A stretch of DNA of 41,598 nucleotides from Christensenella sp. UBA941 (GCA_002293365.1 DBDD01000334.1:1-41598), one strand, 5' to 3'. Counted from the stretch's first letter, positions 2,772 to 26,617 are shown. Notes: generated by a model not told the origin, from the letters alone. Numbers and translations are program-made.

Positions 2772-2916
2772 TTTCGCCCTCCCCGCTTAACACTTTGTCA
2801 ATCTCTTGGCTTATCCCAAGCACTCTACTACAGTCCTCCGCGCCGCGCACTGAAATCTGGTTTACCGTTGTGCGTAGCGAAAGGAGCCAGCCAGCCTCTA
2901 CTTTAACCAACTTCAT
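2740..2916 (-). CDS. small hypothetical protein (58 aa)
   Basis: Below the ORF-track cutoff. ATG at 2916 overlaps the stop of 2913..5576 (ATGA). Hand translation MKLVKVEAGWLLSLRTTVNQISVRGAEDCSRVLGISQEIDKVLSGEGESEPHDEQRSK. Confidence 0.35.
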   Translation of the reverse strand: MKLVKVEAGWLLSLRTTVNQISVRGAEDCSRVLGISQEIDKVLSGEGESEPHDEQRSK

Positions 2917-5576
2917 GCGGCCACCTTCTTCATTTCCGACAGCTCCGATTCAAGCCGTTTGATTCTATGAAAAAGAATCGGAATCATCATCGGCATGTCG
3001 ATTGTTTCCAACACAATTTCGCCCGTCTTAGTTGTTCGCGTAACGCCAAGCCACGGGCAACCCGTGACGGCTTTTTCCGCAATAAAACCGATATTTATTC
3101 GCTTGGAATCGTCAAAAATATAGTTGAATATCACAGGCTCGAAAGCTTCCCAATCATAATGAAAATCTTCAAGCAGTTTGATATTCTCTTTATATCGCTT
3201 AGAGGACGGCGTAGAATACAGCACTTGGCCCGAACTCTGATTCCATGCGAGATACATGTTGCCGCCACCGCTTTGCGGTATACTCGACGGGTGCAGATAG
3301 ACGTAATCGTTGCGCACGCTCAAGGCTGCAATGTTGCTGCCCAGTTCAATTCGCGGCGAGTCTAAGCCTAAAGAAGAGTACGCCTGTAGGTTCGCCGCCC
3401 CCGAAACGGAATAGAGTTTGGCGTAACCCCCAAAATCTAACTCGCCCGACGATTTTACCGTCAGTGATGGAGATGTAAGGCTGTTATTCGAGAGCGTAAA
3501 CCCGGCAATCGCGCCCTCGTTCGCCGTTACCTTGCCACTAAACGACCCACCGGCGGCAGATAAGGTTCCGCTAAATGTGCCGTCGGCCCCGTTCAAGTGC
3601 TTAACTTGTAGCGTGTCTACATCAATTCGCTCAGAATTGAGTTTTCCTGTGCTTATATTAGCGGCGTTGATATTCGTAATCGTCGCCTTGCTTGCGTCGA
3701 TTGTCCCTGTCGAGATATTCCCGCCGTTGATCGTCGTCTGCCCCGGCGTTGAAAGGTTCGTAAAACTGACAAGCCCTTTCATCTCGATCTTCTCGCTTGC
3801 AATCGCCGCTCCGTTCGCTCTAAGCTCGATGGTGCTTGACGTAGAATCGTTCGCGACGGAAAGCGTAATGCTTTTCGCATACGCCGCGACCTCCGCGACA
3901 TTGCCCTCGATATCGCTAATCTGCGATTTGAAGCCATCAACGGTGACTTCGAGTATGTGCATCGCCCGTTTCTGCGCAAAAACACGCCGATTCTGCGCGT
4001 TCACCGCTGGCCGCAACGGTTCGCCCGTGTTCTGAATTTCGGCGCGCGCACTCTTGCCGTTCCATGTGATGGATTGCGAGTAGATAGGCAGTTGGTATAT
4101 CTGCCCGTCAAGGTCAAACGAAACAATATCCCCGGCCTGTAGCGCCCAATTCGTCCGTACCCGCGTACTGATTGGCGAGAAGTCCGGGAACGCGGTTAAG
4201 CGGTTGTAAATCGGAACCGCCGCGACGCGAATGTCGTAATCGTCCGAGCCGTAAAGGAACGGGTTGTCCAGCGTCACATATGCGTTCTTGCCCGTATCGC
4301 CAACAATAACGCCGATATCGTTCTGCGCGCTCTTGACTTGCAGTTTATCGATGCGCGAAACACTGTACTCCGCGATATCCGCGCTGAACCAGTGGCCGTC
4401 ATTGAACACCACAGGCTGTTGCGTAAACCATGCCAGTTCAACCCCGCCGTCCCGCGTCATTCGCGCAATCGAACACGCGGCTTCCGCAATCCGGCCTAAT
4501 ATCTCGCGGGCACTGACTTGATCTAGCTCTGTCGGCTTTTCGGCATACATGCGCGTCGAGTTGATAAAACTGATCGTCGCTTGCGGTACGCCGACGAACT
4601 GGCATAGCTTCGTGAAGATGCTGCCTAAACTGATCGGCCAAGTCAGGCTGTTCCAAAAGTCCGTCGCGTCTGTGTCGAATTTACGCATGTGGTCATGGCC
4701 GACGATTGAGATTAATTGCACTTTGCGTTTCTTGGGCGTATCGACATTGAACACGCCAAGCTTGACGTACTCATATTTCTCATACGAACCATCGGCCCAA
4801 AACTCATGCAGCACGTCGGCGTTCCAGCTCATGCCGCGACGATCTGCGGCCCATCGTGCGGCTTTGCGGCGCATGAAGGGGTTAAGGTCGGGAAGGTCGA
4901 TGAAGCTGTTCCATGTGAACACCCTCATTTCGTCCCACTTTTTCGGTTCTAGCGTTTTCCACGATTCAAGCGCGGTCGCCGGTACAAGAACGCCCTGTAT
5001 ATCATCCCATTTACTTGTGGCTGTTTCGTCCCACGTCTGGCCCGTCAGCATCGACCATATGCGCCCGTCAACCCATGTCGCTTTCCAAGCTTCGCCATCG
5101 GGTGCAAAGCAGTATACACCATTGCCGACGGTCAGAATAGAGTGAACAGCCCACGGCGGCTGCGCGGTCGGCGCGTACCCGTTGATGGTCAGGTATGGCC
5201 GCGACGACCAGCCCTCGAAGCGCAATTCTTGATTAGCGCCGAATCTCATTACCGTCATGCAGTTGGCGATGGAGTATGCGATACCGCCCGATTCTGTCAT
5301 GGCGGCGAGTTGGGCTGTGCATGGGCCGAAGTCGAAAGAGTCTAGGAGGCGGTGGTCGTTGTTGATAGTGGCGGTTAATACGGAGGAAGGAGTAATGCCT
5401 ATCGTTAATTCCCTTTCCTCGCGGGGAATCAAATCCTCGACAAGCTTTACAACGTCGCCAGACTCTAAGTTGATATCTTCGTTGGTCAACAAGGTATCCC
5501 CGAACCTCAACAGTACACGAGTTTTCGGTGATTCGGATTGTGCGGCCTCATGAAATTTTACACTGGCCGGATACAT
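2913..5576 (-). CDS. tail-associated (Tal/tail-tip-like) protein with C-terminal S74-type intramolecular chaperone domain
   Basis: 887-aa ORF with RBS GGAGG. C-terminus SSKRYKENIKLL...GFIAEK matches the endosialidase/tail-fibre autoproteolytic chaperone signature (S-x-R-x-K-x-N-I). Sits after a Dit-like gene. Confidence 0.75.
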   Translation of the reverse strand: MYPASVKFHEAAQSESPKTRVLLRFGDTLLTNEDINLESGDVVKLVEDLIPREERELTIGITPSSVLTATINNDHRLLDSFDFGPCTAQLAAMTESGGIAYSIANCMTVMRFGANQELRFEGWSSRPYLTINGYAPTAQPPWAVHSILTVGNGVYCFAPDGEAWKATWVDGRIWSMLTGQTWDETATSKWDDIQGVLVPATALESWKTLEPKKWDEMRVFTWNSFIDLPDLNPFMRRKAARWAADRRGMSWNADVLHEFWADGSYEKYEYVKLGVFNVDTPKKRKVQLISIVGHDHMRKFDTDATDFWNSLTWPISLGSIFTKLCQFVGVPQATISFINSTRMYAEKPTELDQVSAREILGRIAEAACSIARMTRDGGVELAWFTQQPVVFNDGHWFSADIAEYSVSRIDKLQVKSAQNDIGVIVGDTGKNAYVTLDNPFLYGSDDYDIRVAAVPIYNRLTAFPDFSPISTRVRTNWALQAGDIVSFDLDGQIYQLPIYSQSITWNGKSARAEIQNTGEPLRPAVNAQNRRVFAQKRAMHILEVTVDGFKSQISDIEGNVAEVAAYAKSITLSVANDSTSSTIELRANGAAIASEKIEMKGLVSFTNLSTPGQTTINGGNISTGTIDASKATITNINAANISTGKLNSERIDVDTLQVKHLNGADGTFSGTLSAAGGSFSGKVTANEGAIAGFTLSNNSLTSPSLTVKSSGELDFGGYAKLYSVSGAANLQAYSSLGLDSPRIELGSNIAALSVRNDYVYLHPSSIPQSGGGNMYLAWNQSSGQVLYSTPSSKRYKENIKLLEDFHYDWEAFEPVIFNYIFDDSKRINIGFIAEKAVTGCPWLGVTRTTKTGEIVLETIDMPMMIPILFHRIKRLESELSEMKKVAA

Positions 5577-5585
5577 TGTTGCCTC

Positions 5586-5975
5586 CTAATACTCAATTAC
5601 GGGGAAGGATAGATCGGCGTACCATCCTTCCGGCAGTTCGCCCTCTGGCAGCCAAACACAATTCCAAGTGCGGTTATTGGAGTACGCCGTAATCGTCCTA
5701 ACCGCCGCCGTGCCGGGGTCGAAAAAAGTAAACGCGAATTTTTCGCGCTTAATAAGCTGCATGATGAATGACAGCATTTTTATATCTATAACTCTATATC
5801 CGATTTCGAGGGGGAGTTTTTCGGCGACCTTATCACGATGCAACAATCCGTCTGCCGTTCGTTCAGCGGAAACGTCCAAATCAGAATCAACGCCGCTGAA
5901 CTCTTTGGGGTCGGGGATAGCAGTTCCGTCCACGGCGAACTTCATGGAATATCTATATAGCCTCTTCTCGGCCAC
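5586..5975 (-). CDS. small tail protein, possibly distal-tail (Dit)-like
   Basis: 129-aa ORF immediately upstream of the Tal-like gene. GTG start has no clear SD, so the start is uncertain. Function inferred from position only. Confidence 0.45.
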   Translation of the reverse strand: MAEKRLYRYSMKFAVDGTAIPDPKEFSGVDSDLDVSAERTADGLLHRDKVAEKLPLEIGYRVIDIKMLSFIMQLIKREKFAFTFFDPGTAAVRTITAYSNNRTWNCVWLPEGELPEGWYADLSFPVIEY

Positions 5976-6057
5976 ATGAGGATTTGGCGCTCGACGGCGC
6001 TCTCGACCTTTCCTGCGTTTTTGTTTTCTTTCCTGTTCTTATTTCATCCTTAACTGC

Positions 6058-6086
6058 ATTATACATCAACATATTGTGGTTGTAAA
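6058..6086 (-). promoter_or_regulatory. sigmaA-type promoter for the tail-tip/fibre block
   Basis: Minus strand reads TTTACA-17 nt-TATAAT. The spacer begins with ACCACAATATGT, the recurrent motif. Confidence 0.55.
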
Positions 6087-6102
6087 CTATCTGTACTACT
6101 AT
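6074..6102 (+). promoter_or_regulatory. candidate plus-strand promoter, back-to-back with the fibre promoter
   Basis: TTGTGG-17 nt-TACTAT. The -35 is the complement of the recurrent motif. Confidence 0.35.
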
Positions 6103-6197
6103 ATATTGATTTGCGATCGGATTAGCGGCAAAAACACAAGGCAGGGCGTTCTAGGCGATAAATTTGGGTCGAAATCTATATATTGCGTTTTCATAGC

Positions 6198-6226
6198 TTG
6201 ACATATACCTTATCTTGTGTTTTAAT
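6198..6226 (+). promoter_or_regulatory. candidate plus-strand promoter
   Basis: TTGACA-17 nt-TTTAAT, with TGT just upstream of the -10. Confidence 0.4.
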
Positions 6227-6238
6227 GAATATAGACAT

Positions 6239-6318
6239 TCCGGCAGAGTGTCACACAAAAATCTTGACCTCGCGGTGAAAACCGCTGTCAAATACAAGCT
6301 TCTAACGGTTCTGCCGGA
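6239..6318 (+). ncRNA. structured RNA element (candidate ncRNA core)
   Basis: A 9-bp closing helix TCCGGCAGA/TCTGCCGGA (6239-6247 with 6310-6318) encloses a stem TTGAC/GTCAA plus GCGGT-GAAA-ACCGC (GNRA tetraloop, 6264-6291). No credible ORF. Confidence 0.35.
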
Positions 6319-6430
6319 CGTTAGGAGCTTTTTTCGCACCTTGACAAACGAACAACCGTAGCAAGGCCGTCTTGAAGGACAAACGACGATAAAACAACCG
6401 CGCGTCCGTGTACGCGAAGCGACGGTTAAA

Positions 6431-6466
6431 TCGGGGCTGCTGCCCTGACGGGCGCTTTTCTTTTTT
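6431..6466 (+). terminator. terminator-like hairpin plus U-rich tract
   Basis: TCGGGGC-TGCT-GCCCTGA, or the alternative GCCC-TGAC-GGGC, followed by GCTTTTCTTTTTT. The stems are short. Confidence 0.4.
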
Positions 6467-6578
6467 ACTGGTTTTTTCTTTTCCTTTTCGTTTTCTTCTT
6501 ACGGTTGTTCATTTGGTTTTCCTGTTTCTTTAGGGCCGATATTGGGGCGGCACACAAGAAATATAACGGAGGTCGAAT

Positions 6579-6851
6579 TTGAATCATCACTTTAGTCACG
6601 AGAAGATTATTATTTGCAAGGATACGGAAGAAGTCTGCGCGGGCTATACGGAATACCTTGAACCCATCCATTGGGCGCAAATTCGTAGTAAGGTATTATC
6701 CACTGAATCATGCTGTACCGAATGCGGCTCAAAGAAGGTCTTGCAGCTTCACCACCTGACATACAAGCGCGTCGGGTGCGAGAATCCGGCAAAAAGCGCA
6801 AAGGCAGAAATAAACAGTATTACGCCAAGAGACACATGCAAGGTACAGTAA
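6579..6851 (+). CDS. HNH/zinc-finger-like protein with atypical C-terminus
   Basis: TTG start 6 nt after ACGGAGG. Contains CCTECGSKKVLQLHHLTYKRVG (CxxC...HH). The usual downstream LCxxCH part is missing. Confidence 0.5.
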   Translation: MNHHFSHEKIIICKDTEEVCAGYTEYLEPIHWAQIRSKVLSTESCCTECGSKKVLQLHHLTYKRVGCENPAKSAKAEINSITPRDTCKVQ

Positions 6852-7054
6852 GAGCCTTGCGCCAAAAGGGTATTCAAGTCGCGGTTGCCAAAGGCGCGTC
6901 GAGGGTATTGCTCTGTTATACAAAAGACGGAAAACAGATACAGTATTATGATATGACAGGCGCAATCTATTTCGAGAATTGCAGCAGGAAGTACGGAAAG
7001 TACGGGAGTTTGAAGGGCGTGGACGAACTGATAAAACTATGCCTCGCGTCATAA
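6836..7054 (+). CDS. hypothetical protein (start uncertain; maximal ORF is 6710..7054)
   Basis: The frame overlaps the 3' end of 6579..6851. First plausible ATG is at 6836. MQGTVRALRQKGIQVAVAKGASRVLLCYTKDGKQIQYYDMTGAIYF... looks protein-like. Confidence 0.35.
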   Translation: MQGTVRALRQKGIQVAVAKGASRVLLCYTKDGKQIQYYDMTGAIYFENCSRKYGKYGSLKGVDELIKLCLAS

Positions 7055-7100
7055 CTGCTCAAATCAAAAGGTTCACCACCCGGTTCATGACGCTGGCGCG

Positions 7101-7131
7101 AAATAAAGAAAAGCCCGCTGTTTAGGCGGGC
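7101..7131 (-). terminator. intrinsic terminator after the ImmA-like gene (also between convergent genes)
   Basis: Minus strand reads GCCCGC-CTAAACA-GCGGGC followed by TTTTCTTTATTT. Confidence 0.6.
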
Positions 7132-7149
7132 CGGGGATACAGTTAATAA

Positions 7150-7677
7150 CTATAACAATTCGCTTTCGTCGTAGACCATTCTAAGGTCAACAATCGCTTT
7201 GTCAATTGATTCCTCGTCGAAATGCCGCGACTCATAAAAGTCTTTATCTCCATATTGTCCAGCGCGACGAGCCGTTACCAGTCTTGCAAAGTACGTCGCT
7301 TGGGTCTCCATCTTTCTGTCCTTAATGACTGCGGTGTTGCAAAAAGGCACCATCGGGTTTACGTGATTTAGGGCTATATGCCCTAATTCGTGTCCGATAG
7401 CCAGCAGCTTATCTAGCCTCGAACCTCTTTCGGAATAATGGATATCGGCGGTGTAGTTCTTGCAAATAAAAGCAGCGCCAACATCATATCTCGACCTCGG
7501 ACATTCGTGCTTGAAGATTTTGAATCTAATCGTTTTGCCCTTAGTGCTGTGGGCGTCCGATACCATCTTCTCGACTGCGCGCGTTTCGTGATCCAGATAT
7601 CCGTTCGCGTCAATTTCTCGAAAAAGCTCTTTGCATAGCTTGTCGATATCCGGCTTCTTAAGCTCGTCATAGTTCAA
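7150..7677 (-). CDS. ImmA/IrrE-family zinc metallopeptidase (COG2856-like)
   Basis: HELGHIALNH is an HExxH motif in the typical context. Likely TTG start at 7677 after GGAGGG, overlapping the upstream stop (TTGA). The track ORF extends to 7692. Confidence 0.75.
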   Translation of the reverse strand: MNYDELKKPDIDKLCKELFREIDANGYLDHETRAVEKMVSDAHSTKGKTIRFKIFKHECPRSRYDVGAAFICKNYTADIHYSERGSRLDKLLAIGHELGHIALNHVNPMVPFCNTAVIKDRKMETQATYFARLVTARRAGQYGDKDFYESRHFDEESIDKAIVDLRMVYDESELL

Positions 7678-7967
7678 GCCTCGGCCCTCCAATGGTCAAG
7701 AAGATAACTCTCTTTTGCGAAGCCGTACATGGTATCGAAATCATCGTCTGTTATTCCGGTGAACTGCGCGCTAATTACGCCCATGCGGTTTATTAGGTAT
7801 GTATACTTCTCTTGTGTGGTTTTGTAGCCGTGACCAGCTAAGATTACGTCAATCTGGTCGTAATCCCTGCACTCCTCTAGGTCAGTGTAGATTACAGCGT
7901 CCATCTCCATCTCTCCTTTGTAAAAAGTAATTGAATAATCGCGGGACTCTATATCGCCCATCGTCAT
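7674..7967 (-). CDS. acidic 97-aa hypothetical protein, translationally coupled to the ImmA-like peptidase
   Basis: ATG after GGAGG. No HTH recognisable. Rich in D/E. Confidence 0.6.
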   Translation of the reverse strand: MTMGDIESRDYSITFYKGEMEMDAVIYTDLEECRDYDQIDVILAGHGYKTTQEKYTYLINRMGVISAQFTGITDDDFDTMYGFAKESYLLDHWRAEA

Positions 7968-8270
7968 ACCATCGCCTCCATTCGGCTAAATGTATTAGCC
8001 TATTTGGGCCAGTATAACGAATACGCGCAACGAATTATGTCGTACTAACTTAAATGAAAATGTATATATGCGCATAACGGCGGCGAAACGCGCCGACTTG
8101 TTACGCTCGGAGCGCGCCGATAGGGCTTGTCCCGCCCCACAAAATGGGTATACAAAACAAGCTCCCGTATCCGATTCGATTTTTCATCATTGCGCACCTT
8201 GCCGATCTGTAAATATTATCTGTATATTATCATAGGAAAATAGCAGAAACAAGTAGTTTTTGTGAACTTT

Positions 8271-8305
8271 TGCGATAATTCTATGCAAATATGCGATAAT
8301 TCTAT
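8271..8305. repeat. two exact 14-nt direct repeats TGCGATAATTCTAT, 21 nt apart (operator-like)
   Basis: Copies at 8271-8284 and 8292-8305, inside the divergent regulatory region between 7967 and 8462. Confidence 0.8.
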
Positions 8306-8386
8306 CGTTGTACGCTACTGACGTTCGTCATATATCTGTGCCGTCGCCGTCATGAAAAAATACTTTTCGACATGGCAAAATGTTCC

Positions 8387-8416
8387 TTGACAAAACAAAT
8401 GGTGCGCCCATATAAT
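8387..8416 (+). promoter_or_regulatory. sigmaA-type promoter of the RHH-antirepressor operon
   Basis: TTGACA-18 nt-TATAAT. The spacer contains GTGCGCC (8402-8408). Confidence 0.6.
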
Positions 8417-8418
8417 AT

Positions 8419-8450
8419 TTACGTAATATATTGAGTTAATGATTACGTAA
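8419..8450. promoter_or_regulatory. inverted repeat TTACGTAAT ... ATTACGTAA just downstream of the -10 (operator candidate)
   Basis: Perfect 9-nt arms at 8419-8427 and 8442-8450, each containing the palindrome TACGTA. Confidence 0.5.
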
Positions 8451-8461
8451 CATGGAAGGAG

Positions 8462-8653
8462 GTGGACGACACGCCACGCGGGAAAGTTACCGACGATCCC
8501 AAGTTTATACGCTTGGAGATAAGACTTACCGAAGACACAAAGGCGATGCTCGATTATTGCGCGGAAGCAAACGGATACTCAATGGCCGAAGGAATTAGAC
8601 GCGGCATAGCCATGTTGTATCAGCAAACTATAGGCGACGAAACAAAAGAATAG
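8462..8653 (+). CDS. ribbon-helix-helix (Arc/Mnt/CopG-like) DNA-binding protein
   Basis: KFIRLEIRLTEDTKAMLDYCAEANGYSMAEGIRRGIAMLY fits a strand-helix-helix pattern. The GTG start abuts GGAAGGAGG, so the exact start is uncertain. Confidence 0.7.
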   Translation: MDDTPRGKVTDDPKFIRLEIRLTEDTKAMLDYCAEANGYSMAEGIRRGIAMLYQQTIGDETKE

Positions 8654-8683
8654 TGCGCCCATCCGACCAAAGAGCGGCGCACT
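8652..8683. promoter_or_regulatory. 8-bp inverted repeat AGTGCGCC / GGCGCACT between the RHH and antirepressor genes
   Basis: Arms at 8652-8659 and 8676-8683 with a 16-nt loop. Shares the GTGCGCC half-site with the promoter spacer. Confidence 0.5.
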
Positions 8684-8769
8684 AAACCCCAAAACAGCCC
8701 GAAGGTTGTCTACAGGTATAATAACACGTAGGCTCCTTCCGGGCAACAAGAAAAAAGAAGGAGCTAACG

Positions 8770-9549
8770 ATGCAAAAATTACAACTGATAAAGTCGGCCA
8801 ATTTTGGCGAAGTAACGTGCGATATCTACGAGGGCGGCGACGAGTTTTTTATGACGCGGGAGCAGATCGGGCGGGCGCTGGAATATGCGAATCCACGAGA
8901 TTCCATTAAAACGCTACATTCCCGATTCAAAGAAAGGCTTAACACGTTGGGTTTTTCGAGGAGGGTTCAAATCGATACCCCTTCCGGGAGACAGACCGCA
9001 ACCGTCTACACCCGTAAAGGTGTTATGGAAATCTGCCGTCATAGCGAACAGCCCAAAGCCGACGCTTTTATGGACTGGGTATGGGACGTGATGGACGGGC
9101 TGATTACCGGGCGCACAAAGGCCGTTCCCGCCGCCGAACTTGAACGCATTCGTATCCAAGCGCAAGCCGACCGTTCCAAAGCAATGCTTATGAACGCGCA
9201 AAACCGAACGCTCAAAACGCTCATGGGCACCATCTCGGACAAAAAGCTCTCATCCATCGCTGTCGAAGTATTTGGCTTGAAGTCCATCGAAGAGGCTACG
9301 GGCATTAACATGGGCCAATATCTGCCCGAATGCGAAAAGACGTTCAGCGCAACGGAGATAGGAATGCAGCTTGGCGGCATAAAGTCGGCCAAAATTGGCG
9401 CACTCGCCAATAAGCACGGCCTAAAAACGAAAGAGTATGGGATTATGGTTATGGACAAATCGCCTTATAGCAGCAAGGAAGTACCGAACTTTCGATATTA
9501 CGCGAACGTCGTTCCCGTCTTGCGCAAGATTCTGGACGAAAGCGTGTAG
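8770..9549 (+). CDS. phage antirepressor (Bro-N N-terminal domain plus antirepressor-type C-terminal domain)
   Basis: ANFGEVTCDIYEGGDEFFMTREQIGRALEYANPRDSIKTLHSRFKERL is Bro-N-like. RBS AAGGAG. Confidence 0.8.
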   Translation: MQKLQLIKSANFGEVTCDIYEGGDEFFMTREQIGRALEYANPRDSIKTLHSRFKERLNTLGFSRRVQIDTPSGRQTATVYTRKGVMEICRHSEQPKADAFMDWVWDVMDGLITGRTKAVPAAELERIRIQAQADRSKAMLMNAQNRTLKTLMGTISDKKLSSIAVEVFGLKSIEEATGINMGQYLPECEKTFSATEIGMQLGGIKSAKIGALANKHGLKTKEYGIMVMDKSPYSSKEVPNFRYYANVVPVLRKILDESV

Positions 9550-9592
9550 GACAACAGCGCAAATGCGCCAGAATAGAGCAAGCGTAAACAAA

Positions 9593-9612
9593 CCGCCCTT
9601 TGACCGGGGCGG
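9593..9612. terminator. hairpin between convergent genes (bidirectional terminator candidate)
   Basis: CCGCCC-TTTGACCG-GGGCGG. The minus-strand copy is followed by TTTGTTTAC. Confidence 0.55.
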
Positions 9613-9643
9613 CTTGTGGGGTGTAAATACTATAGCTATGCGC

Positions 9644-10906
9644 TCAATCCAGAGTAACAAAATCTTCGCGAAGATATCCTTCCATCCCGTCGATACTGAC
9701 TTCGTACCAGTCCCCATCTTCACCTAAAATCGTTGCGCTTGACGGCTCCCCGACCTTACCGACCACATCGTAGTCTGTACCGGGGCCAGCGCGAAGATTG
9801 ATATCTTCGCCGTTAAGGGAGGCGGTACGAGGGGCGGGGTCGGAATCGGTTGGTTCGGCGGGTGCGGAGTTATCGCCGTACAGGCAGAACCACGCACTAT
9901 CATCAAACCTTGCCAGCGGACTATCTTCATCCTTTGGAACAACGCAATATATCCAACCTTTTGCCGTACCACCTTCGTATATTTCGGCCCCAAACTTATC
10001 ATCAAAAACCGCGCTGTAAAACTCGGTTGAAATTTCGGAATAAGAGCTGTCGAAATATTCAAAGCGGCCAGAATACGCATCATACGCTTCTTCGTCGCTC
10101 CAAGCGTTTAACACGAGCGTAACGTTGAATAGCAACAGTTCGCCATCCTCCGGCTTTTCGTTGTATCTGTTCCCTTCCTTCACGACCTCCCACGCTTCGT
10201 TGCCGCGCAAAACTTCGTTGATTGTTATCGTAAAGCTACCGTCCCCAGAATAGCTAGACAAGTCGAAGTCTACGGCTTGTCCAATCGGCGCGGGCATAGT
10301 GCGTGAACCTACCGTCGCGGCTTCGGCGTCTGCTGCTTCATCGTATTGTTCAATCGACGTTGCAAGGAATTTCGGAATCGTCATGCTGCCGCCCATGATT
10401 GTTTCGTATGTTTCCATGCCATCCATTACCCCGTACATGGTAACGATATCGTTTTCGAGAATCCGATTATTGTTGCTCATGCCGGGATAGATAACATAGA
10501 TGGTGTCGCGGTAGGAACTGCCTACCTTTGTGACATTTGCGCGAAGCGTTGCACCCACACCTGTTGAGTCCGCGACAACTTGGATTATCTCGCCTGTGAA
10601 CTTTGCCTTTGCGCCTACGTAATTGTCGGGTGTTCGGGCGATATCCTCATACGCCAATGCTTGAAATTCATCATTTGCGGTAGTCGATTCACTCAATCCG
10701 GGTTCTGCGGAGCCGGTGTCGATCAGGCTTAGATTGGCTTCGGCATCCTCTCCGTCGCCGCCCTCGTATACGGCGAGACGGGCTTGCAGCGCATCTCTCT
10801 CCGCAACAATCTTGTCGTATTCTTCTTGCGATACTCCGGCGCTAACCGGCGCGGCACAACCAGTCAGCAACAACAGACAAATCAACAAAACAAGGATTCT
10901 CTTCAC
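9644..10906 (-). CDS. secreted lipoprotein with C-terminal bacterial SH3 domain (moron-type cargo)
   Basis: MKRILVLLICLLLLTGC is a signal peptide plus lipobox. C-terminus LNGEDINLRAGPGTDYDVVGKV...WYEVSIDGMEGYL is SH3b-like. Has its own promoter. Confidence 0.8.
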   Translation of the reverse strand: MKRILVLLICLLLLTGCAAPVSAGVSQEEYDKIVAERDALQARLAVYEGGDGEDAEANLSLIDTGSAEPGLSESTTANDEFQALAYEDIARTPDNYVGAKAKFTGEIIQVVADSTGVGATLRANVTKVGSSYRDTIYVIYPGMSNNNRILENDIVTMYGVMDGMETYETIMGGSMTIPKFLATSIEQYDEAADAEAATVGSRTMPAPIGQAVDFDLSSYSGDGSFTITINEVLRGNEAWEVVKEGNRYNEKPEDGELLLFNVTLVLNAWSDEEAYDAYSGRFEYFDSSYSEISTEFYSAVFDDKFGAEIYEGGTAKGWIYCVVPKDEDSPLARFDDSAWFCLYGDNSAPAEPTDSDPAPRTASLNGEDINLRAGPGTDYDVVGKVGEPSSATILGEDGDWYEVSIDGMEGYLREDFVTLD

Positions 10907-10977
10907 GGTAAACCCTCTCTTTCGTATCGCGCCGCCAAAGATGCTATCTGTTTTTGTCTGGACGCTTTGATGGATAT

Positions 10978-11006
10978 ATTGTACCCAAAAACAGGATTCT
11001 TAGCAA
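10978..11006 (-). promoter_or_regulatory. promoter of the lipoprotein gene
   Basis: Minus strand reads TTGCTA-17 nt-TACAAT. Confidence 0.5.
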
Positions 11007-11138
11007 TAGAAAAGCCCGTTGCCTTGCTCATAATATACGGTTTGTATATTTTAGATTTCCTGCGTACTATATATAGCGGCTGTGCGAACACGCAAACAAG
11101 TGGTATAGTGAATACAAAGATGCCATTCGGAGGTCGCC

Positions 11139-11342
11139 ATGTACAGGTCATTTTCCGGCTATTGCCCCACGCAAGACAAGAAAACAACGATTGACATAAA
11201 TTATAAGGACGCATCAGATACCCAGAGCAGGATATTCATTAGGGGCTTGATAAGTTGCGATTACGTCAAGCGCGGCGGCGATTGCTCTCTGCCAAAGGGT
11301 TGCCCGATACGAGCAAGTGCGCCGGAGGAATTACGTGGTTAA
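11139..11342 (+). CDS. small hypothetical protein (67 aa)
   Basis: ATG 5 nt after GGAGG. Upstream TGGTATAGT is an extended -10. Its stop overlaps the stop of the convergent 11339..11566 (TTAA). Confidence 0.4.
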   Translation: MYRSFSGYCPTQDKKTTIDINYKDASDTQSRIFIRGLISCDYVKRGGDCSLPKGCPIRASAPEELRG

Positions 11343-11566
11343 GTCCCTCCAAGCTTCGCCTCGCGTACACACACGTCCGCAAGTGTAGTTATATCAACGC
11401 TTTCGGGCATTAGCTCCAGCGTCACGACAGGGATATTGCCCGCTTCTATCGCGACGCCAGCTTTCCGTATGCGCGTAACCTCTGCGCCGTCTATAAAGAC
11501 GCGCGTTTTTCCGCATTCCCGCCGTATCTCCATATGCACTTTCTTGCGTCCGAGCCGATTATCCAT
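11339..11566 (-). CDS. small hypothetical protein following the tape measure gene
   Basis: 75-aa ORF with RBS TGGAGG. Confidence 0.6.
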   Translation of the reverse strand: MDNRLGRKKVHMEIRRECGKTRVFIDGAEVTRIRKAGVAIEAGNIPVVTLELMPESVDITTLADVCVREAKLGGT

Positions 11567-11583
11567 CTATAATAACCTCCATA

Positions 11584-14500
11584 TCAATACGTTCCGCTTG
11601 CCATCTCTGCTGCGTTCATAATCCTAATGAGCGCACGACCGGCCTCTACGTCGGTTATCCTGCCGCCGCCGTTACCTATCGAGGCCACAAGCTGCCGCAA
11701 GAGTTTGTTTGTTTCGCGCTGTAATAAAACTTGTTCACGGTTCGCGCGTTCTACGCCGCCCGTAATGCCCGCGACGATTTGCTCATTGTTCGCCACGGCG
11801 GTTCGGTTGCCCATTTGTGCGACAAGCTCCGGCCCGCGTTCGCGCGCAATAAAGAGCTGTCCCGCATCAACAAAACCGCCGGACGCAAGCTCTGGAATCG
11901 TTCGGATATTGAACCCGAACGACGAACCCCGCGCCATGCCGAGCAAATCAGCTACCCAATCGGGATAGTCGATTTTGATGGAGTTGATACCGTTCACGAT
12001 ACCGTTTATTGCACGAATAACCGTGTTGATTGCGCCCTTGAAAAAGTCGCCTATGGGGGTTGCTACTTTTTCGTTGAACCATGTAGCGACATCCTTCCAG
12101 ACCTTTTCAACGTCGGCCCATAAGTCTGTGAAGAATCCAGATATATCGCTAATAGCTGAATCGAAAGCCGTTTTAACAGGTTGAATTACCGTCGTGTCAA
12201 ACCATGTTGACACAGTGTCCCATACACCCTCAACATCTTCCCACAAGCTCTCAAAGAAACCCGATACGTCTGTCCATAAATCCTTAAAGAATCCGACTAC
12301 TGGCTTAATGACCGTAGTATCAAACCAGCCGCTTACCTCGTCCCACACGCCTTTTATATCACTCCACAAATCCGAGAAGAATTTTGAAACTGGTTTAATA
12401 ACATTCGTGTCGAACCATGTTGATACCGTATCCCACGTAGACTTAATGCCGTTCCATATTGAATCAAAGAGTGTAAGGATTAACGCTATCGGAACCCTTA
12501 CGACCTCCCATATACCGTTCGCAACTCCAGAGAACCACTCGACAGCGCCGTTCCATACACCGACAATATCATCCCAGATTCCAGTAAAGAAATCGGATAT
12601 AGGCTTTGTAACCTCTGTTTCAAACCAATCGGCAACGCCGCCCCACAGGGTTTCTATATCCGTTTTGATTCCCGTAAATGCACCGCTTACCGCGCCGCCC
12701 ACGCGCTCCATGAAAAATTCAAGGAGTGCTATTTGGTCGCCGGACGCAAGAATATCATAGAAGCCTTGTCCAAGCCGTTCGGCCATATATGCGCCCTCGT
12801 TTTCCATAAATGAAACGTCCAGCGTTCCTTCTGCTTGCCTAAACGCATCATCAATGCCGGAATAAGCCGTATGCACCGCTTGATACGACATGGCCTCGAC
12901 AGCGCGGTCGTATTCCGCGCCGGAATAATAGGATAGGCCAAGAGCGCCTAAATGGTCTTTCCATGTAGGGCTACTTGCATCTAGAGCTTGATTAAGTTGG
13001 CTTTCGTACGCAGACCTTACTTCCCCAAAGATTTCGCTAAGCTCGGTCTGTATGCCGCTTTTCTGGTTTGCAAAATCATCTATCAATATTTGCTTAATAT
13101 CGCCAAGCATTTCTACATCTTCGAGGTTTCCGGCTGCTGTGGCGGCGGCAATTGCATTGTCAATTTCGGTAATCGAAACGACCTTCGCTTGCTCTATTCC
13201 GTCTAAAAGCTCCTTGCCGATGGTTTCCATTTCGCCAATGCGCTTTTTCGCATTCTCTAAATCTCCGAAGTCGATAGGCGTATCTTTAAGGTCTGACTTC
13301 ATGAGGTTGAATTTGGTCTGCGAATCCGTAACCGAACCGGATAATTCACCCATCCGCTTCGTGAGGTCGGCTATTTCTTTGGATTGTGCCTCAAATTCGG
13401 GCGTACCCCGCGATAAACCCTTCAGCCCCTGTATGGATTCGTCTAATTGTTTCTTTAACTCCGCGAGTGAGCCTTGTGTTTCGGACGCAAAAAGATTATA
13501 GCTACCGATTAACCCCTCAATGTGTGTGGCGGTTTCGCCTGACGCCCGCGACAGAGCGCCGACCAGCGCCGTATTGATTATTTGGGATGAAAGAGTCAGT
13601 TTTTCATTTATAGTGTTGTAAAGATCGTCGAACATGCCTTTCAGCTTGTCGATATCCTCTTGCATCACCGGCGTATTTATGCCGATTGTATTCATGAATG
13701 ATTCAATCGCGATTATTGAATTGTCGATTTCCTCTTTCTTGCCGACAATTTCTACGCCCATGCGCACGATTTCTCTATTGCGCTGCGCGTCGAGCGTTTC
13801 CCCAAGCATACGCACTTGTTCAACGTATGCCTCAATCGGCGTACCGCCATTATCGAAAAGGAATGTTCCGACAAACTCCTTGCGCAATTGCTCTTGGGCG
13901 AGAATTACGCCCGTGATTGCACCCGCTACCGCGCCTATCGCAGCGACCGCCCACCCAGCGGGGCCAATTACGCTTGCAAGGATAGGCCCAACCAGCGCGA
14001 ACGAGCCCACAGCCGCGATTGCGGCGGCAAGGAAGGGGTCAACGCCGTTCATAACCATTGCGTATGCCCCGGTTGCTGCGATTGCGAAAGCGGCGACAAA
14101 GCCAGCCAGCGCCGCCTTTACGGCGTCGATGCCTCCGAGCAGCCCGCCTTTTCCGATTGCTGTGGCAACCTTACTAAGAGCGCCTATGAAGTCCAGAATT
14201 TTATCAACGAGCCAAAGCCCCGCCAGCGCCGCCGCAATCGTTTTTATGAGCGGCAACCAGCGTTCAAACTCTTTTATGATATCGTCTATCTGACTTTGCA
14301 GATCGCCCAAAAAGTCATACTCGAACTTGCTTAAATCGAAGTCCTCTATAGCGTCCCAATCGACGGACGAACCACCACCAGCGCCACTCGCCCCGCCGCC
14401 CGACTGAGACTGAATCAAATTGATCTGGTCGAAACCGGCAAGTAGGCCCTTCAATTCTTTTGCTTTATCCGACGCGCCGCCTAGTCCATCTTCGAGGTCG

Positions 14501-16026
14501 CCAACAGCGCCTCCAGCGTCCTCAAGGCCGGAATAATCAATCGTTGGCAGTTCAAAGCCAAACAATGTAGCGAGCGCCTGTATCGCGGTCGTTAATACTC
14601 TCACAAAGGCTATCACATAGGGAATAACCTCTATGAGAATCGGAATAAACAGATTACCCAGCGCGCGCGTGAGCTGCTTAATTTGACCATCCAGAATACG
14701 CATTGCATTAGCTGGCGTCATGATAGTACGCGCCATGTCGCCCAAAGCGTTTGTGCTTTGCTGCATTATGGCGATGTAGCGCAACATGCCCTTGTCGGCT
14801 TCGGTCATGTTCGCGACTTTTTGCTCGATGCCGAGCGAAAGAGCTATCTCTTCGAGTTTCGCCTGTGACAAGGCCATGCCCCAGCGCCTTAATGGTTCGA
14901 TCTCCCCAGCAATACCGCTTTGCAGTTTCGTCATTGCTTCTTCGACAGGGGCATTGAAATACGAGGATAAATCGTAACCTAATTGAGTGAGTGTTTTGCT
15001 CATGGAGTAGGCTTTATCTTCGACCACGCCAAACCCGGTCGCCAACTGCATGAACATGCCTTGATTACGTATCCACTCGGACATATCTATGCCCATAACG
15101 TCCTGCACCTTTTCAGCATAACGCATGGCTTCATCCGCATACTCGCCCATCGACACCGTAAACAGATTAACGTTCTCAACAAAAGCATTAGACTGATCTA
15201 TCCAGCCTTTGAGTACGCCGCCTACGCGCTTTATAGCGTAGGTAATTACACCGAGCTTCGCTATAGTGCCGGTCGCCGAATTGCCGAATAACCCCGTACT
15301 CTTTGCAGCCTTACTCATAGCCGGGGAAAGCGCGTGCGCCGCCTTTGCCAGCGCGTTAAGGCGGGCCGTACCGATGTTGGACGTTGCATTGTTCAGCCTG
15401 TGTAGCGCCGCCGCCAGCTTGTCTATGTTTGTAAATATGACATTGGAAATAGGCTTGATCTTGCCAAGCGCGCCCAAAGACGTAACGAGTTTGGCGATAC
15501 CGGCAAACTGAATACGGTCGAGCCCCGCGAAACTCTGCATACCCGTGCCCAATTGGTCGAGGTTCGCGACAAGTTGCGGGTTTACGGGCTTAACTTCGCC
15601 GATCTCGTTAAGCGCATTCGTGATGTTTGTGAGCGAATCGCCCAGCGTTTTCGAGACTTTGACGCCATCCAGTTTTCTTAAAGATTCGGCTACTTGATTA
15701 ACGCCCTCGTAATTGGCGTCGGCGCTGAAAGAGCCTATAGATTTTCCGATATCCGATAGGTTGGTTTTGATAGTGGAACTTATTTTTACACCGTCTAAGG
15801 CTTTTATGGAATCTGAAATTTGTTTAAGTGTGCTTGGAGCATCGGCGGTTCCGTTAATCGCGACATTAATTCGTTCAAGTGACTTGGCTATAGAATTAAG
15901 GCCAGCGCCGCCACGTGCCGCCGACCTAATGGTTGCGAGTGCGGCACCGATGCCGTTAAGCCCCTTAACAGCCTGCGCTGAATTGTCATCGATCTGTACA
16001 GATAACGAATCAACATTGACCGACAC
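11584..16026 (-). CDS. tail tape measure protein
   Basis: 1480 aa. Downstream of the G/G-T chaperone pair. Has a central hydrophobic segment, a long helical region and W/F-periodic C-terminal repeats. Confidence 0.9.
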   Translation of the reverse strand: MSVNVDSLSVQIDDNSAQAVKGLNGIGAALATIRSAARGGAGLNSIAKSLERINVAINGTADAPSTLKQISDSIKALDGVKISSTIKTNLSDIGKSIGSFSADANYEGVNQVAESLRKLDGVKVSKTLGDSLTNITNALNEIGEVKPVNPQLVANLDQLGTGMQSFAGLDRIQFAGIAKLVTSLGALGKIKPISNVIFTNIDKLAAALHRLNNATSNIGTARLNALAKAAHALSPAMSKAAKSTGLFGNSATGTIAKLGVITYAIKRVGGVLKGWIDQSNAFVENVNLFTVSMGEYADEAMRYAEKVQDVMGIDMSEWIRNQGMFMQLATGFGVVEDKAYSMSKTLTQLGYDLSSYFNAPVEEAMTKLQSGIAGEIEPLRRWGMALSQAKLEEIALSLGIEQKVANMTEADKGMLRYIAIMQQSTNALGDMARTIMTPANAMRILDGQIKQLTRALGNLFIPILIEVIPYVIAFVRVLTTAIQALATLFGFELPTIDYSGLEDAGGAVGDLEDGLGGASDKAKELKGLLAGFDQINLIQSQSGGGASGAGGGSSVDWDAIEDFDLSKFEYDFLGDLQSQIDDIIKEFERWLPLIKTIAAALAGLWLVDKILDFIGALSKVATAIGKGGLLGGIDAVKAALAGFVAAFAIAATGAYAMVMNGVDPFLAAAIAAVGSFALVGPILASVIGPAGWAVAAIGAVAGAITGVILAQEQLRKEFVGTFLFDNGGTPIEAYVEQVRMLGETLDAQRNREIVRMGVEIVGKKEEIDNSIIAIESFMNTIGINTPVMQEDIDKLKGMFDDLYNTINEKLTLSSQIINTALVGALSRASGETATHIEGLIGSYNLFASETQGSLAELKKQLDESIQGLKGLSRGTPEFEAQSKEIADLTKRMGELSGSVTDSQTKFNLMKSDLKDTPIDFGDLENAKKRIGEMETIGKELLDGIEQAKVVSITEIDNAIAAATAAGNLEDVEMLGDIKQILIDDFANQKSGIQTELSEIFGEVRSAYESQLNQALDASSPTWKDHLGALGLSYYSGAEYDRAVEAMSYQAVHTAYSGIDDAFRQAEGTLDVSFMENEGAYMAERLGQGFYDILASGDQIALLEFFMERVGGAVSGAFTGIKTDIETLWGGVADWFETEVTKPISDFFTGIWDDIVGVWNGAVEWFSGVANGIWEVVRVPIALILTLFDSIWNGIKSTWDTVSTWFDTNVIKPVSKFFSDLWSDIKGVWDEVSGWFDTTVIKPVVGFFKDLWTDVSGFFESLWEDVEGVWDTVSTWFDTTVIQPVKTAFDSAISDISGFFTDLWADVEKVWKDVATWFNEKVATPIGDFFKGAINTVIRAINGIVNGINSIKIDYPDWVADLLGMARGSSFGFNIRTIPELASGGFVDAGQLFIARERGPELVAQMGNRTAVANNEQIVAGITGGVERANREQVLLQRETNKLLRQLVASIGNGGGRITDVEAGRALIRIMNAAEMASGTY
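12035..12665 (-). repeat. degenerate tandem coding repeats in the tape measure (W-F-x-x-x-V-x-x-P-x-x-x-F-F-x-x-x-W units)
   Basis: At least 5 units such as WFDTNVIKPVSKFFSDLWSDIKGVW, WFDTTVIKPVVGFFKDLWTDV, WFDTTVIQPVKTAF. Boundaries are approximate. Confidence 0.6.
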
Positions 16027-16596: not shown

Positions 16597-17007
16597 CTAA
16601 AGCTCCACGATCCTCGTCGAGTTTTTTCTGACTCGCGCGATGTCGTCTTTTGGGATAATCAGTGTATCGAGCGCTTGCCTGTACAGGTCGATCAGCCGTA
16701 CAATTTCTGCGTCCATAAGCCCGCCCAAGTCTTCCAGAATAGCGTCCGTCTCGGGTCTTGTCATGCTTTTGTGGTTTTTTCGGAACGCATAATAGAACAG
16801 GTCGGGAAGGCCACCGGCAACATAATCCGTGACCTCGCCAAACTTGAATTTCCGGTCTTCGGCGTGCTTGATGGATTCGCGACTGAAATCAAGGATATAT
16901 GCCTTGCCCGCCTTGGGTTCGATTACCTTCATCGGATTTATGCGCTTTTTCTCGTCGGGAACGACCTTGATCTCCGTAACAGGATTCGTGGTTTCTTCCG
17001 CAGCCAT
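16597..17007 (-). CDS. tail assembly chaperone G
   Basis: 136-aa ORF between the major tail and tape measure genes. RBS AAGGAG. Confidence 0.7.
   Translation of the reverse strand: MAAEETTNPVTEIKVVPDEKKRINPMKVIEPKAGKAYILDFSRESIKHAEDRKFKFGEVTDYVAGGLPDLFYYAFRKNHKSMTRPETDAILEDLGGLMDAEIVRLIDLYRQALDTLIIPKDDIARVRKNSTRIVEL
16621..16627 (-). promoter_or_regulatory. -1 programmed ribosomal frameshift slippery heptamer A-AAA-AAC
   Basis: The zero frame reads AGA AAA AAC, 8 codons before the G stop. The -1 frame continues into the T ORF. Confidence 0.65.
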
Positions 17008-17077: not shown

Positions 17078-17548
17078 CTACGCCGCCGTCGGCTTCGCGG
17101 CCCAGCCGCCAATGTCGTTCGGCGCGATGTACGCCGTGATCTGCAAACCGGCGTTGACCTCGATTGCTGCAAGGCCCAGCGGAGAAGGTTGCCCCGCAAA
17201 GTAGAACGCCCGCGACAGTTTCGGAATAACGACGGCAAACCACATCGAAAGACTTTCTTCGAGCGCCGATTCGTATTCGTCCACCAGAGCGTCCCAAGCC
17301 GTGTGAAATTCCTCTGTGTGATTCGCGCCGAAACCGATTGCCGAGCCAACGTCCTTCAAGCCGGTAATGTACCGCATGAATTCGGTTTCGGAGAGGTCGG
17401 TTACGTCAATGGTGTTCGGCTCCGGGTTGAAATCGGGAATCGACCGTATGTTCGATATCGTCCTGTACCCGGACGTAGGGCGAGTGCCGGACACGGTTTC
17501 CTTGCAGCATTGCAAAGTGATTCCGGCGGTAGACAGTTCGTTAGCCAT
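17078..17548 (-). CDS. major tail (tube) protein
   Basis: 156-aa ORF with RBS AAGGAGG. Position before the chaperones, and a hairpin after the gene. Confidence 0.7.
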   Translation of the reverse strand: MANELSTAGITLQCCKETVSGTRPTSGYRTISNIRSIPDFNPEPNTIDVTDLSETEFMRYITGLKDVGSAIGFGANHTEEFHTAWDALVDEYESALEESLSMWFAVVIPKLSRAFYFAGQPSPLGLAAIEVNAGLQITAYIAPNDIGGWAAKPTAA

Positions 17549-17747: not shown

Positions 17748-18149
17748 CTACTTCTGGTAAACTATCAGTTCATCCGAGATTTTCGCGCGCCATTTCGCGA
17801 CGCGACGGGCTATTTTTGAATCAGTGTTCGGTATGGGCGAGTTCATCATCCGCACAAATCCGAGCGACAACATTACTTCGTCTGCCGTGTTCATGATCGT
17901 GCGGGCTTGTGCTTTTCGCCCGGACACTAGGTTTGAATAAACTTCACCGACATACACAACCCAAGCGGCGTGATCGACTTTCTGGAAATCGTTCGAGTCA
18001 GCGTCCGTGTAGTTATCATCTTCCCAGAGCAGAAACGCCGGGAACGTTGCGGGAACGGCTTGTGCGTCGCCAGCCACGAATATGCCGGGGTGTTTCTCGC
18101 GCATTATCGGAGCCACTTTGTTGTAGACAAGGAGTTCGCAGTCAATCAT
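17748..18149 (-). CDS. head-tail joining / tail completion-type protein
   Basis: Likely ATG at 18149 (ATGA overlap with the HNH stop). The track ORF extends to 18209. Function inferred from position only. Confidence 0.5.
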   Translation of the reverse strand: MIDCELLVYNKVAPIMREKHPGIFVAGDAQAVPATFPAFLLWEDDNYTDADSNDFQKVDHAAWVVYVGEVYSNLVSGRKAQARTIMNTADEVMLSLGFVRMMNSPIPNTDSKIARRVAKWRAKISDELIVYQK

Positions 18150-18805
18150 TGTGCGCGCCTCATTCCGCTCGGTAGCGCGGGAGCAGTAACGGCCTCGATG
18201 GGATTCCATCCCTTCCGTATTCGATCTCGTGCCGTTTGCGGCTTAACCCCGCGCTCTTCCGCCCACTCTGCTACGGTCTTCTTCACACCGCCAATCTCCA
18301 CAACAATGTTCCTGCGGGTATTTCTGCAATTTATCTTTTGTGTTACCCAGCGGCAATTTGAAGGTTCGTAATCGCCGTCGTTATCCTCGCGGTCTAGCGT
18401 GCAAGCGCCGCGCTTGGCGTTGTCTTGATATCCATTGGCGAGTGCCCATTTGGCGAATTGTGAAAAATCGTGCCATTCTTCACAAACGGATATTCCACGT
18501 CCAACGTAATTCTTTGCCCCGCTCACGTTTGTGTTCGAGCAGCGCCCAATCATATTCATCCACACCCCGAACAAACGAGTATTTGTCATGCCGTGGGTTC
18601 GCCGTATATTGCCTATGGATTCTCTGTATAGGCACCCGCACGATTGGGTGTGGCCGCTCCTCAAGTCGCAGCTACTAACGACGCTTTCGTTCCCGCAATC
18701 GCACCGACACAACCAAAACGCTTTGCCGCCCCTTCTCGTCTCAACGTATGAGAGTACCGTTAAGCGCCCATACCTTTCGCCGGTTATGTCTATGCGTCTA
18801 CTCAC
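18146..18805 (-). CDS. HNH_3-type homing-endonuclease-like protein
   Basis: GRGISVCEEW...LDREDNDGDYEPSNCRWVTQKINCRN. Paralogue of 38695..39261. GTGA overlap with the upstream gene. Confidence 0.65.
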   Translation of the reverse strand: MSRRIDITGERYGRLTVLSYVETRRGGKAFWLCRCDCGNESVVSSCDLRSGHTQSCGCLYRESIGNIRRTHGMTNTRLFGVWMNMIGRCSNTNVSGAKNYVGRGISVCEEWHDFSQFAKWALANGYQDNAKRGACTLDREDNDGDYEPSNCRWVTQKINCRNTRRNIVVEIGGVKKTVAEWAEERGVKPQTARDRIRKGWNPIEAVTAPALPSGMRRAQ

Positions 18806-26219: not shown

Positions 26220-26617
26220 GCCCGTACCCTCCGATTCCAAGCGTCCACGGCGCCGTCCTCGCTTCCGTACAACGCGCCCGTATTCGCCTTGCACTTTTCG
26301 CACATGACGTACCATTGCGGCTCGTCTAAGGCCAGCAGATTCCCGTATCTGCCTGTGTGCGCCGTGCCGCCGCAGAACGGACACGCCAAAAGGCCAGATT
26401 CGCCTTGCGGCCCCGGTTCGCCCTCTGGACAACCGTTACCGAGCGGTACGATTTTAGACTCTCTCCGTCCGTCTGGCGGTTCGCGCTTCGATGCCAGCGG
26501 GGCGAGACAGCAATCCGCGCAACCCGGCACACGCCCCATGCAGCCGCCGGTACGACTATATGCGCCGAACGGACAGCTGCCGCAACCGGCGGGCAATTCA
26601 TCAACAAATATCTTCAT
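26216..26617 (-). CDS. Cys-rich protein with C-terminal Lar-like domain
   Basis: ACPFCGGTAHTG...VMCEKCKANTG...AVDAWNRR. ATGA overlap with the sigma gene stop. Confidence 0.6.
   Translation of the reverse strand: MKIFVDELPAGCGSCPFGAYSRTGGCMGRVPGCADCCLAPLASKREPPDGRRESKIVPLGNGCPEGEPGPQGESGLLACPFCGGTAHTGRYGNLLALDEPQWYVMCEKCKANTGALYGSEDGAVDAWNRRVRA

Follow-up and report, generated by a model that had tools for sequence, protein, structure and literature searches.

The window analysed here, a stretch of 41,598 nucleotides (nt), is the entire 41.6-kb contig C275 of the metagenome-assembled genome (MAG) Christensenella sp. UBA941, which is 51% complete and the sole genome of its family; near-identical or identical contigs were found in termite-gut metagenomes. 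It carries a long-tailed phage with nearly all of its genes on the minus strand. An island of accessory genes lies between the tape-measure protein (TMP) gene (11584..16026, minus strand, 1480 amino acids (aa), phrog_1535 E 8.7e-72), its upstream flank, and a DUF6711 gene (5586..5975, minus strand, 129 aa, DUF6711 E 2.7e-6, phrog_1194 E 8e-16), its downstream flank. The TMP stop and the DUF6711 gene are 5,608 nt apart. An initial annotation of this DNA had described a 5.4-kb island between the TMP and the Dit/Tal tail genes; the split itself was borne out, but the right limit, placed at 11338, needed correction. Because a 75-aa open reading frame (ORF) beside the TMP gene also has no counterpart in relatives, we redrew the island as 5976-11583. 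Its content is non-structural by domain matches (a lipoprotein, a ribbon-helix-helix (RHH) protein, a Bro-N protein, an M78 peptidase and an HNH remnant), and about one-third of it is non-coding.

The 75-aa ORF (11339..11566, minus strand) starts 17 nt past the TMP stop, has a GGAGG ribosome-binding site and is part of the inserted DNA. It had no family match, and relatives have no ORF at that position; the possibility that it is a duplicated DUF6711 fragment was rejected because the sequences are unrelated. A 432-nt spacer (10907..11338) then leads to the lipoprotein gene, with a candidate promoter on the minus strand (TTGCTA-17-TACAAT, 11006-10978) and a doubtful plus-strand ORF of 67 aa (11139-11342) that is without a family match. 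The lipoprotein gene (9644..10906, minus strand) encodes 420 aa, comprising a signal peptide with the lipobox LLTGC (MKRILVLLICLLLLTGC, judged by eye), a central DUF4352-like region (DUF4352 E 1e-3, below the cut-off) and a C-terminal SH3b domain (SH3_3 E 8.4e-11). The MAG contains at least one further prophage, on contig C45, which encodes a 381-aa paralogue (L002 490-2713) that has this signal peptide too and an SH3b end of 70% identity, but differs in its middle part. The paralogue gene comes directly after that of a CI-like HTH_3 repressor, itself divergent from a Cro-like gene. The slot beside a CI-like repressor is a classic site for a gene that is expressed in the lysogen. Because its paralogue adjoins a repressor, as Ltp-type lipoproteins do, the island lipoprotein is a plausible candidate for a superinfection exclusion or lysogenic conversion factor. 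Between the lipoprotein gene and the convergent antirepressor gene lies a GC-rich hairpin (9592..9618), T-rich on its minus-strand side, where TTTGTTTAC comes after it; the hairpin is likely to act as a stop for the TMP and lipoprotein transcripts.

The antirepressor operon runs on the plus strand. Its first gene encodes a 63-aa RHH protein (8462..8653, phrog_876 'transcriptional repressor' E 1.7e-10), which matched RHH_1 below the cut-off (E 0.007) and is 37% identical (E 1e-10) to an RHH-like protein that clade L119 encodes at the corresponding junction. The second encodes a 259-aa antirepressor-type protein (8770..9549; Bro-N E 4.4e-8, phrog_1726 'anti-repressor' E 6.5e-23) with full-length tblastn matches to annotated antirepressors; Pfam gave Bro-N only for this protein, and no P22 antirepressor domain. 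Upstream of the RHH gene is a divergent control region of 494 nt (7968..8461), in which a perfect TTGACA-18-TATAAT promoter faces the antirepressor operon (8387-8416, plus strand). Its -10 element is followed by two TTACGTAA palindromes (8419-8426 and 8443-8450), both ahead of the ribosome-binding site, and this sequence is found nowhere else in the window. On the other side of the control region, an exact 14-nt direct repeat (two copies, at 8271-8284 and 8292-8305) and minus-strand promoter candidates at 8266-8237 and 8213-8186 are located upstream of a second operon. A weak minus-strand promoter-like site (8746-8718, 9/12) was also found between the RHH and antirepressor genes; in P22 the antisense RNA sar has its place between arc and ant.

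This second operon, on the minus strand, encodes an acidic helical protein of 97 aa (7674..7967) whose stop overlaps the start of a gene for an ImmA/IrrE-type (M78) zinc metallopeptidase (7150..7692, 180 aa, or 175 aa from the called start). The 97-aa protein had no family match and no helix-turn-helix (HTH), its predicted model (predicted local distance difference test (pLDDT) score of 74) found no fold match in the PDB, and its family is rare, with 13 representative clusters in 1.84 billion proteins. Its start was probably mis-set by the longest-ORF rule, as homologues point to M20 or M22 (7902-7908), which would give a protein of about 76 aa. The match of the peptidase to Peptidase_M78 (PF06114) is marginal (E 8.5e-5, 22.8 bits against a cut-off of 22), and the protein retains the motifs HELGH and ETQATYFA (E..A..FA); its homologues are rare, and tblastn against phages returned no match. 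A predicted intrinsic terminator (7112..7132, minus strand) lies 3' of the peptidase gene and is kept in a sister variant of the island, L003. A sub-threshold Rfam match of this terminator to a Trp leader was set aside as hairpin resemblance, and no Rfam family matched the non-coding DNA of the island. The 97-aa/ImmA pair is kept in L003 and is also present, at ~55% identity, in a Joint Genome Institute (JGI) metagenome contig (L021, 1-1119), where the next gene encodes a signal-peptide protein and not DUF6711. Because it is found there beside an unrelated gene, we conclude that the pair moves as a unit.

Between the ImmA terminator and the tail genes lies a nested insert of 971 bp (6134..7104, blastn breakpoints), in place of which L003 has 12 bp; forms with and without the insert are present in the same metagenome assembly. 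The insert contains a plus-strand frame of 90 aa (6579-6851) that matches phrog_8060 over positions 2-64 of 213 only and has CxxC...HH, short of a complete HNH/zinc-finger motif, and a frame of 114 aa (6710-7054) that overlaps it. We asked if the two could be an intact HNH gene with a frameshift, and rejected this. Joining the overlapping frame does not extend the phrog_8060 match, and the HNH-like gene is thus a remnant. The initial annotation had listed as cargo a lipoprotein, an RHH repressor, a Bro-N antirepressor, an ImmA peptidase and an HNH-like gene; the first four are present with the domains it gave them, and the last is reduced to this remnant. It had also described about 600 nt of structured non-coding DNA. 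This holds for 445 nt of the insert (6134-6578), which are moderately structured (z -2.6 and -2.4 versus shuffles), but not for the spacer at 10907-11338, which folds no better than its shuffles (z +0.75 and +1.1).

Next to the insert, a near-consensus promoter on the minus strand (TTTACA-17-TATAAT, 6058..6086) is predicted to serve the distal tail genes. The initial annotation had proposed that this sigmaA-type site could allow the receptor-binding genes to be expressed independently of the rest of the tail; the site was found and both of its hexamers are identical in L003, while independent expression is read from consensus sites only. The promoter scan gave 17 promoter-like sites against 8.4 ± 3.2 in shuffles. 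The spacer of the promoter contains the phage motif ACCACAATATGT, with 5 occurrences in the window against 0.22 expected, two of them in a separate divergent control region that spans 40.9-41.1 kb and has repeated motifs. The motif ACCACAATATRT, likewise with 5 occurrences against 0.22 expected, was seen at 6069-6080, in the same promoter spacer, at 37854-37865, in a promoter-like site, and twice in 40930-41133; the tail promoter of L003 carries a version of it with 3 mismatches. It could represent an operator or belong to a class of phage promoters. The leader of the distal tail genes (5976-6057, ~80-110 nt) contains a tandem CGAG(A)GCGCC repeat and is near-identical in L003, although the adjacent genes are ~9% diverged. 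A search for a duplicated leader RNA of the late operon found none here.

The DUF6711 gene downstream of this leader occupies the position of Dit, after the TMP and before the tail-tip/fibre gene, in ~90 related loci. It had been called Dit-like, a label that comes from its position only. Its predicted model was unusable for the Dit fold (mean pLDDT 38), and a 13-sequence profile had no sequence relative in the PDB. Its start, too, is probably mis-set, with homologues pointing to the ATG at 5945 (119 aa). The gene is followed by one for an 887-aa tail or fibre protein (2913..5576, minus strand, phrog_6616 'tail protein' E 6e-26) with a C-terminal Peptidase_S74 chaperone domain (E 2e-5), and then by genes for a collagen-like fibre and a DUF6273 protein.

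We compared this arrangement with that of relatives. Of these, 80 IMG/VR loci were fetched with an alignment of the conserved TMP C-terminus, in which a block, RTAVANNEQIV, is common to ~1,900 homologues, and 41 metagenome loci were added. In these two sets DUF6711 was detected with a profile of 13 homologues, and the gap was taken from the TMP stop to the first DUF6711 match. The gap is 3-15 nt in phages PG1, Krappator27 and SMO_1P, and 1-6 nt in prophages of bacteria of the same order, where the genes are adjacent in 9/9; on four metagenome contigs (L007-L010) the TMP stop overlaps the DUF6711 start, and in IMG/VR the gap is ≤21 nt in 66 of 76 loci. After dereplication at 90% DUF6711 identity, 57 clusters remained. 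The two genes overlap or lie ≤25 nt apart in 47 of these, with 3 clusters at 26-100 nt, 2 at 0.7-1.1 kb and 5 at more than 1.5 kb. The expectation that a TMP gene is directly followed by the next tail gene was thus upheld in 47/57 clusters, and the two genes appear to be translationally coupled in most relatives. The nine nearest relatives by DUF6711 (42-50% identity) have gaps of -4 to +13 nt, and the island is absent from all nine. Because the junction is gap-free in most relatives, including the nearest, we interpret the island as a gain in the lineage of the window.

The same junction is filled with other genes in other, unrelated clades. In L104 and in L108-L113, different lipoprotein genes (274 and 201 aa) are located there on the opposite strand, with flanks and signal peptide in common, and in L064 the junction holds a gene for a DUF4190 membrane protein. 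A clade whose DUF6711 is 22-27% identical to that of the window (L116-L150) has junction islands of 1.7-5.3 kb. These encode a zinc-ribbon/DUF4352 membrane protein, an RHH-like protein, Bro-N+ORF6C, Bro-N+ANT, Rha and ORF6N proteins, and further a bPH_2 membrane protein, GIY-YIG genes and DnaD-like winged-helix proteins. Loci without a detected DUF6711 have DUF4352, RHH or Bro-N genes directly after the TMP. Thus at least four clades, including that of the window, have filled the junction independently, each with an envelope protein (membrane protein or lipoprotein), and RHH and antirepressor-type genes are found in two of them, that of the window and L116-L150. The new finding is that phages use the TMP/DUF6711 junction repeatedly as a slot for cargo of the exclusion and antirepressor types. 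The likeness to the P22 immI region that the initial annotation had noted is supported, in that other clades too carry a membrane protein, RHH and antirepressor-type genes at this junction, but as an analogy and not as homology.

Two details of these loci concern their individual genes. The lipoprotein loci of L104 (10346-11170) and L108 (10328-10933) have near-identical flanks, and the signal peptide MKKFIALLIA is common to both proteins, which looks like a cassette swap. In L116 (5744-10915) and L119 (5458-10915) the TMP is split into two ORFs by an intervening ORF with a GIY-YIG-type motif at its start (YIYKATNKINGKSYIGQT, by eye), in contrast to L118 (194-3793), where the TMP is intact at 1199 aa; the split suggests a homing endonuclease or intron inside the TMP.

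Close relatives of the island itself are few. A megablast search of 5000-12500 against phages gave no match, and IMG/VR single-protein scans with DUF6711, the antirepressor and ImmA gave no close relatives. A metagenome scan with the TMP C-terminus returned nothing above 40% identity besides short fragments, so that the close relatives are L003, L019 and L020. One of these, L019, from an independent assembly, matches the window at 99.97% over 11.7 kb, with 4 mismatches, from the TMP to the tail protein, and thereby spans the island from end to end together with its two junctions; L020 and L003 come from a different assembly and extend over its left part.

We consider it likely that 5976-11583 is an accreted accessory (moron-type) island at the TMP/DUF6711 junction, which would make it the equivalent, in a long-tailed phage, of the 'ant moron' of P22. 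It seems to be a mosaic of four modules: the 75-aa ORF with the lipoprotein gene, the RHH/Bro-N operon, the 97-aa/ImmA pair and the 971-bp insert. At least two of them, the insert and the 97-aa/ImmA pair, move independently. The late transcript from the TMP would end at the hairpin at 9592-9618 and that of the ImmA operon at 7112-7132. With stops predicted at these two sites, the DUF6711, tail protein and fibre genes would therefore depend on the promoter at 6086-6058. In the proposed mechanism, the lipoprotein would be made in the lysogen and act at the cell surface against incoming phages, like Ltp and SieA, and the RHH protein would repress its own operon at the paired TTACGTAA sites. If this repression were lifted, the Bro-N protein could inactivate the repressor of this phage or of a co-resident prophage, and the ImmA protease may be the trigger, by cleaving some repressor. 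A broader proposal is more doubtful, and we offer it tentatively. It would join three parts: the junction, in this group of Firmicute long-tailed phages, as a dedicated and exchangeable slot for pairs of a surface exclusion protein and an antirepressor; the tail-tip/receptor-binding genes rewired here into a separate operon with a host-type promoter that carries a phage operator-like motif; and ImmA, its non-HTH partner and the RHH protein as an undescribed protease-gated antirepressor switch.

Several observations weigh against the moron interpretation and its mechanism. No integrase, CI-type repressor or lysis genes were found on the 41.6-kb contig, and because of this the temperate lifestyle, and with it the target of the antirepressor and protease, is assumed from relatives. 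In relatives the lysis and lysogeny genes follow the DUF6273 gene, with the recombinase and HTH repressor after the lysis genes, and for this reason the missing genes are probably past the left end of the contig; no contig of the MAG overlaps either window end. Family searches detected no homology of the lipoprotein to Ltp or SieA. The island contains no adjacent XRE/HTH repressor that could be a substrate for ImmA, and no LexA-type box. Its promoters and terminators are consensus matches only, and the hairpin at 9592-9618 went uncalled in the scan for consensus terminators. Finally, the island genes differ little in GC content (0.46-0.51) from the rest of the phage, so that base composition does not by itself point to a foreign origin.

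Other explanations could account for parts of the data. One is that the junction is a hot spot for defence and counter-defence, with a lipoprotein that excludes phages, an ImmA pair that works as a CapP-like sensor-protease in control of a defence function and a Bro-N protein that serves as DNA-binding effector or decoy. Membrane protein and lipoprotein genes do recur at the junction, and ImmA had a weak capP match in PADLOC (E 0.003). However, PADLOC found no system and gave no or negligible matches for the other island proteins, and the partners that recur are RHH, Bro-N, ORF6N and Rha regulators, not known defence effectors, which makes this explanation unlikely. It is also improbable, to a greater degree, that the island is the main lysis-lysogeny switch moved into the tail module, with the RHH protein as repressor and Bro-N and ImmA as induction machinery. 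This would fit the lack of a CI-type repressor or integrase on the contig, and the divergent control region with its operator-like repeats and perfect promoter. The recombinase and HTH repressor of relatives, however, lie after the lysis genes, which corresponds to a position past the left end of the contig; moreover, a separate divergent control region is present at 40.9-41.1 kb and the island is absent from the nearest relatives.

The mixed strands, the lower GC content (0.478 vs 0.523) and the high non-coding fraction might instead indicate a chimeric assembly, or else that an autonomous mobile element (for example a satellite, insertion sequence or integrative element) has integrated here. 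The spanning contigs argue strongly otherwise. With L019 crossing the island and both junctions at 99.97%, and with the left part also present in L003 and L020, an assembly artefact can be dismissed. As for a mobile element, family searches found no integrase, transposase or recombinase among the island proteins, there are no flanking direct repeats (the longest repeat common to both flanks is 8 nt), and no second copy of the island was found in the MAG; we give this explanation very little credence. Nor does it seem at all probable that the intervening genes are structural or assembly parts of the tail of this phage, as might be supposed from the close coupling of the 75-aa ORF to the TMP and the position of the lipoprotein gene on the strand of the tail genes. 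The genes are missing in 47/57 clusters, as in each of the nine nearest relatives; they encode regulatory or cell-surface domains, and two operons either run on the opposite strand or end at terminators of their own. The alternative that the cargo consists of conserved structural components is therefore not borne out here, as it is absent from most relatives, and an accreted moron-type island remains our preferred interpretation.

The remainder of the contig is that of a phage with terminase, portal, scaffold and major head genes. The terminase region is immediately preceded, on its upstream side, by a phage-encoded sigma factor gene (26614-27183, phrog_351 E 5e-30), and late genes may thus rely on a phage-specific promoter type that is invisible to a sigma-70 scan. 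Ahead of the TMP are genes for the major tail protein (17078-17548) and a DUF5055 chaperone (16597-17007). Full-length HNH endonuclease genes were found within the head-tail gene block (18146-18805, phrog_374 E 5e-70) and at 38695-39282 (phrog_3377 E 5e-45); together with the remnant at 6579-6851, they point to a phage rich in homing-endonuclease-type genes. The early region encodes a Lar restriction-alleviation/DUF551 protein (30240-30740) and a radical-SAM/DUF5131-like protein (30937-31743).

Long-tailed phages are commonly taken to have compact tail operons without interruptions. In the present case, a particular tail junction accommodates kilobases of cargo and has been filled repeatedly and independently with the same kinds of gene, mirroring the P22 'ant moron' in an unrelated phage type. 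If the proposed functions are correct, exclusion and antirepressor genes of uncultured gut phages could be found by position alone, and there would be an ImmA protease to study that lacks the repressor partner it usually has. As regards annotation, prophage- and operon-prediction tools may wrongly split a phage at the TMP/DUF6711 junction.

The 'ant moron' of P22 is a hypervariable and largely independently expressed block, with sieA, mnt, arc, sar and ant between genes 16 and 9, that influences transcription into the tailspike gene (PMC2629481, PMC8022706). Like it, the island interrupts the late operon immediately before the receptor-binding genes, is either missing or of another kind in close relatives, and pairs an exclusion-type envelope protein with a small RHH repressor and an antirepressor, a likeness of position and gene type only. 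As in P22, a block between the upstream late genes and the receptor-binding gene could affect transcription of that gene. There are also differences. The host phage is long-tailed and the junction is TMP/DUF6711; the island has one RHH gene, upstream of the antirepressor gene, in contrast to the two of P22 (Arc with ant, and Mnt divergent); its antirepressor is of the Bro-N type rather than the P22 Ant type; and its divergent operon encodes the 97-aa protein and ImmA, with an HNH remnant added. Furthermore, the RHH/antirepressor operon points away from the tail genes, which appear to use their own promoter rather than read-through.

The antirepressors of Gifsy prophages act in trans and are controlled by LexA (PMC3121763). 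Similarly, the antirepressor gene of the island is away from a main immunity region and could cross-talk with co-resident prophages, whereas the island lacks a LexA-type box. In ImmR/ImmA of ICEBs1 and in IrrE/DdrO, a COG2856 protease acts with an XRE repressor as its substrate. The island resembles these systems in having an M78 peptidase with HEXXH and E..A..FA, encoded in a two-gene operon in a mobile-element control region, and differs from them in that the partner is a 97-aa helical protein without HTH and the nearest regulator is the RHH protein, encoded on the other strand. Ltp-type lipoproteins, as in the temperate Streptococcus phage TP-J34, are morons that block DNA entry; the ltp gene adjoins a gene with a metalloprotease motif and a repressor gene, and Ltp is reported to target the tape measure of incoming phages (PMC3952083). 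Like Ltp, the island lipoprotein is a phage-borne, moron-type surface lipoprotein, and its C45 paralogue likewise adjoins a CI-like repressor. In contrast to Ltp, its domains are DUF4352-like and SH3b, and its gene is located in the tail operon rather than in the lysogeny module.

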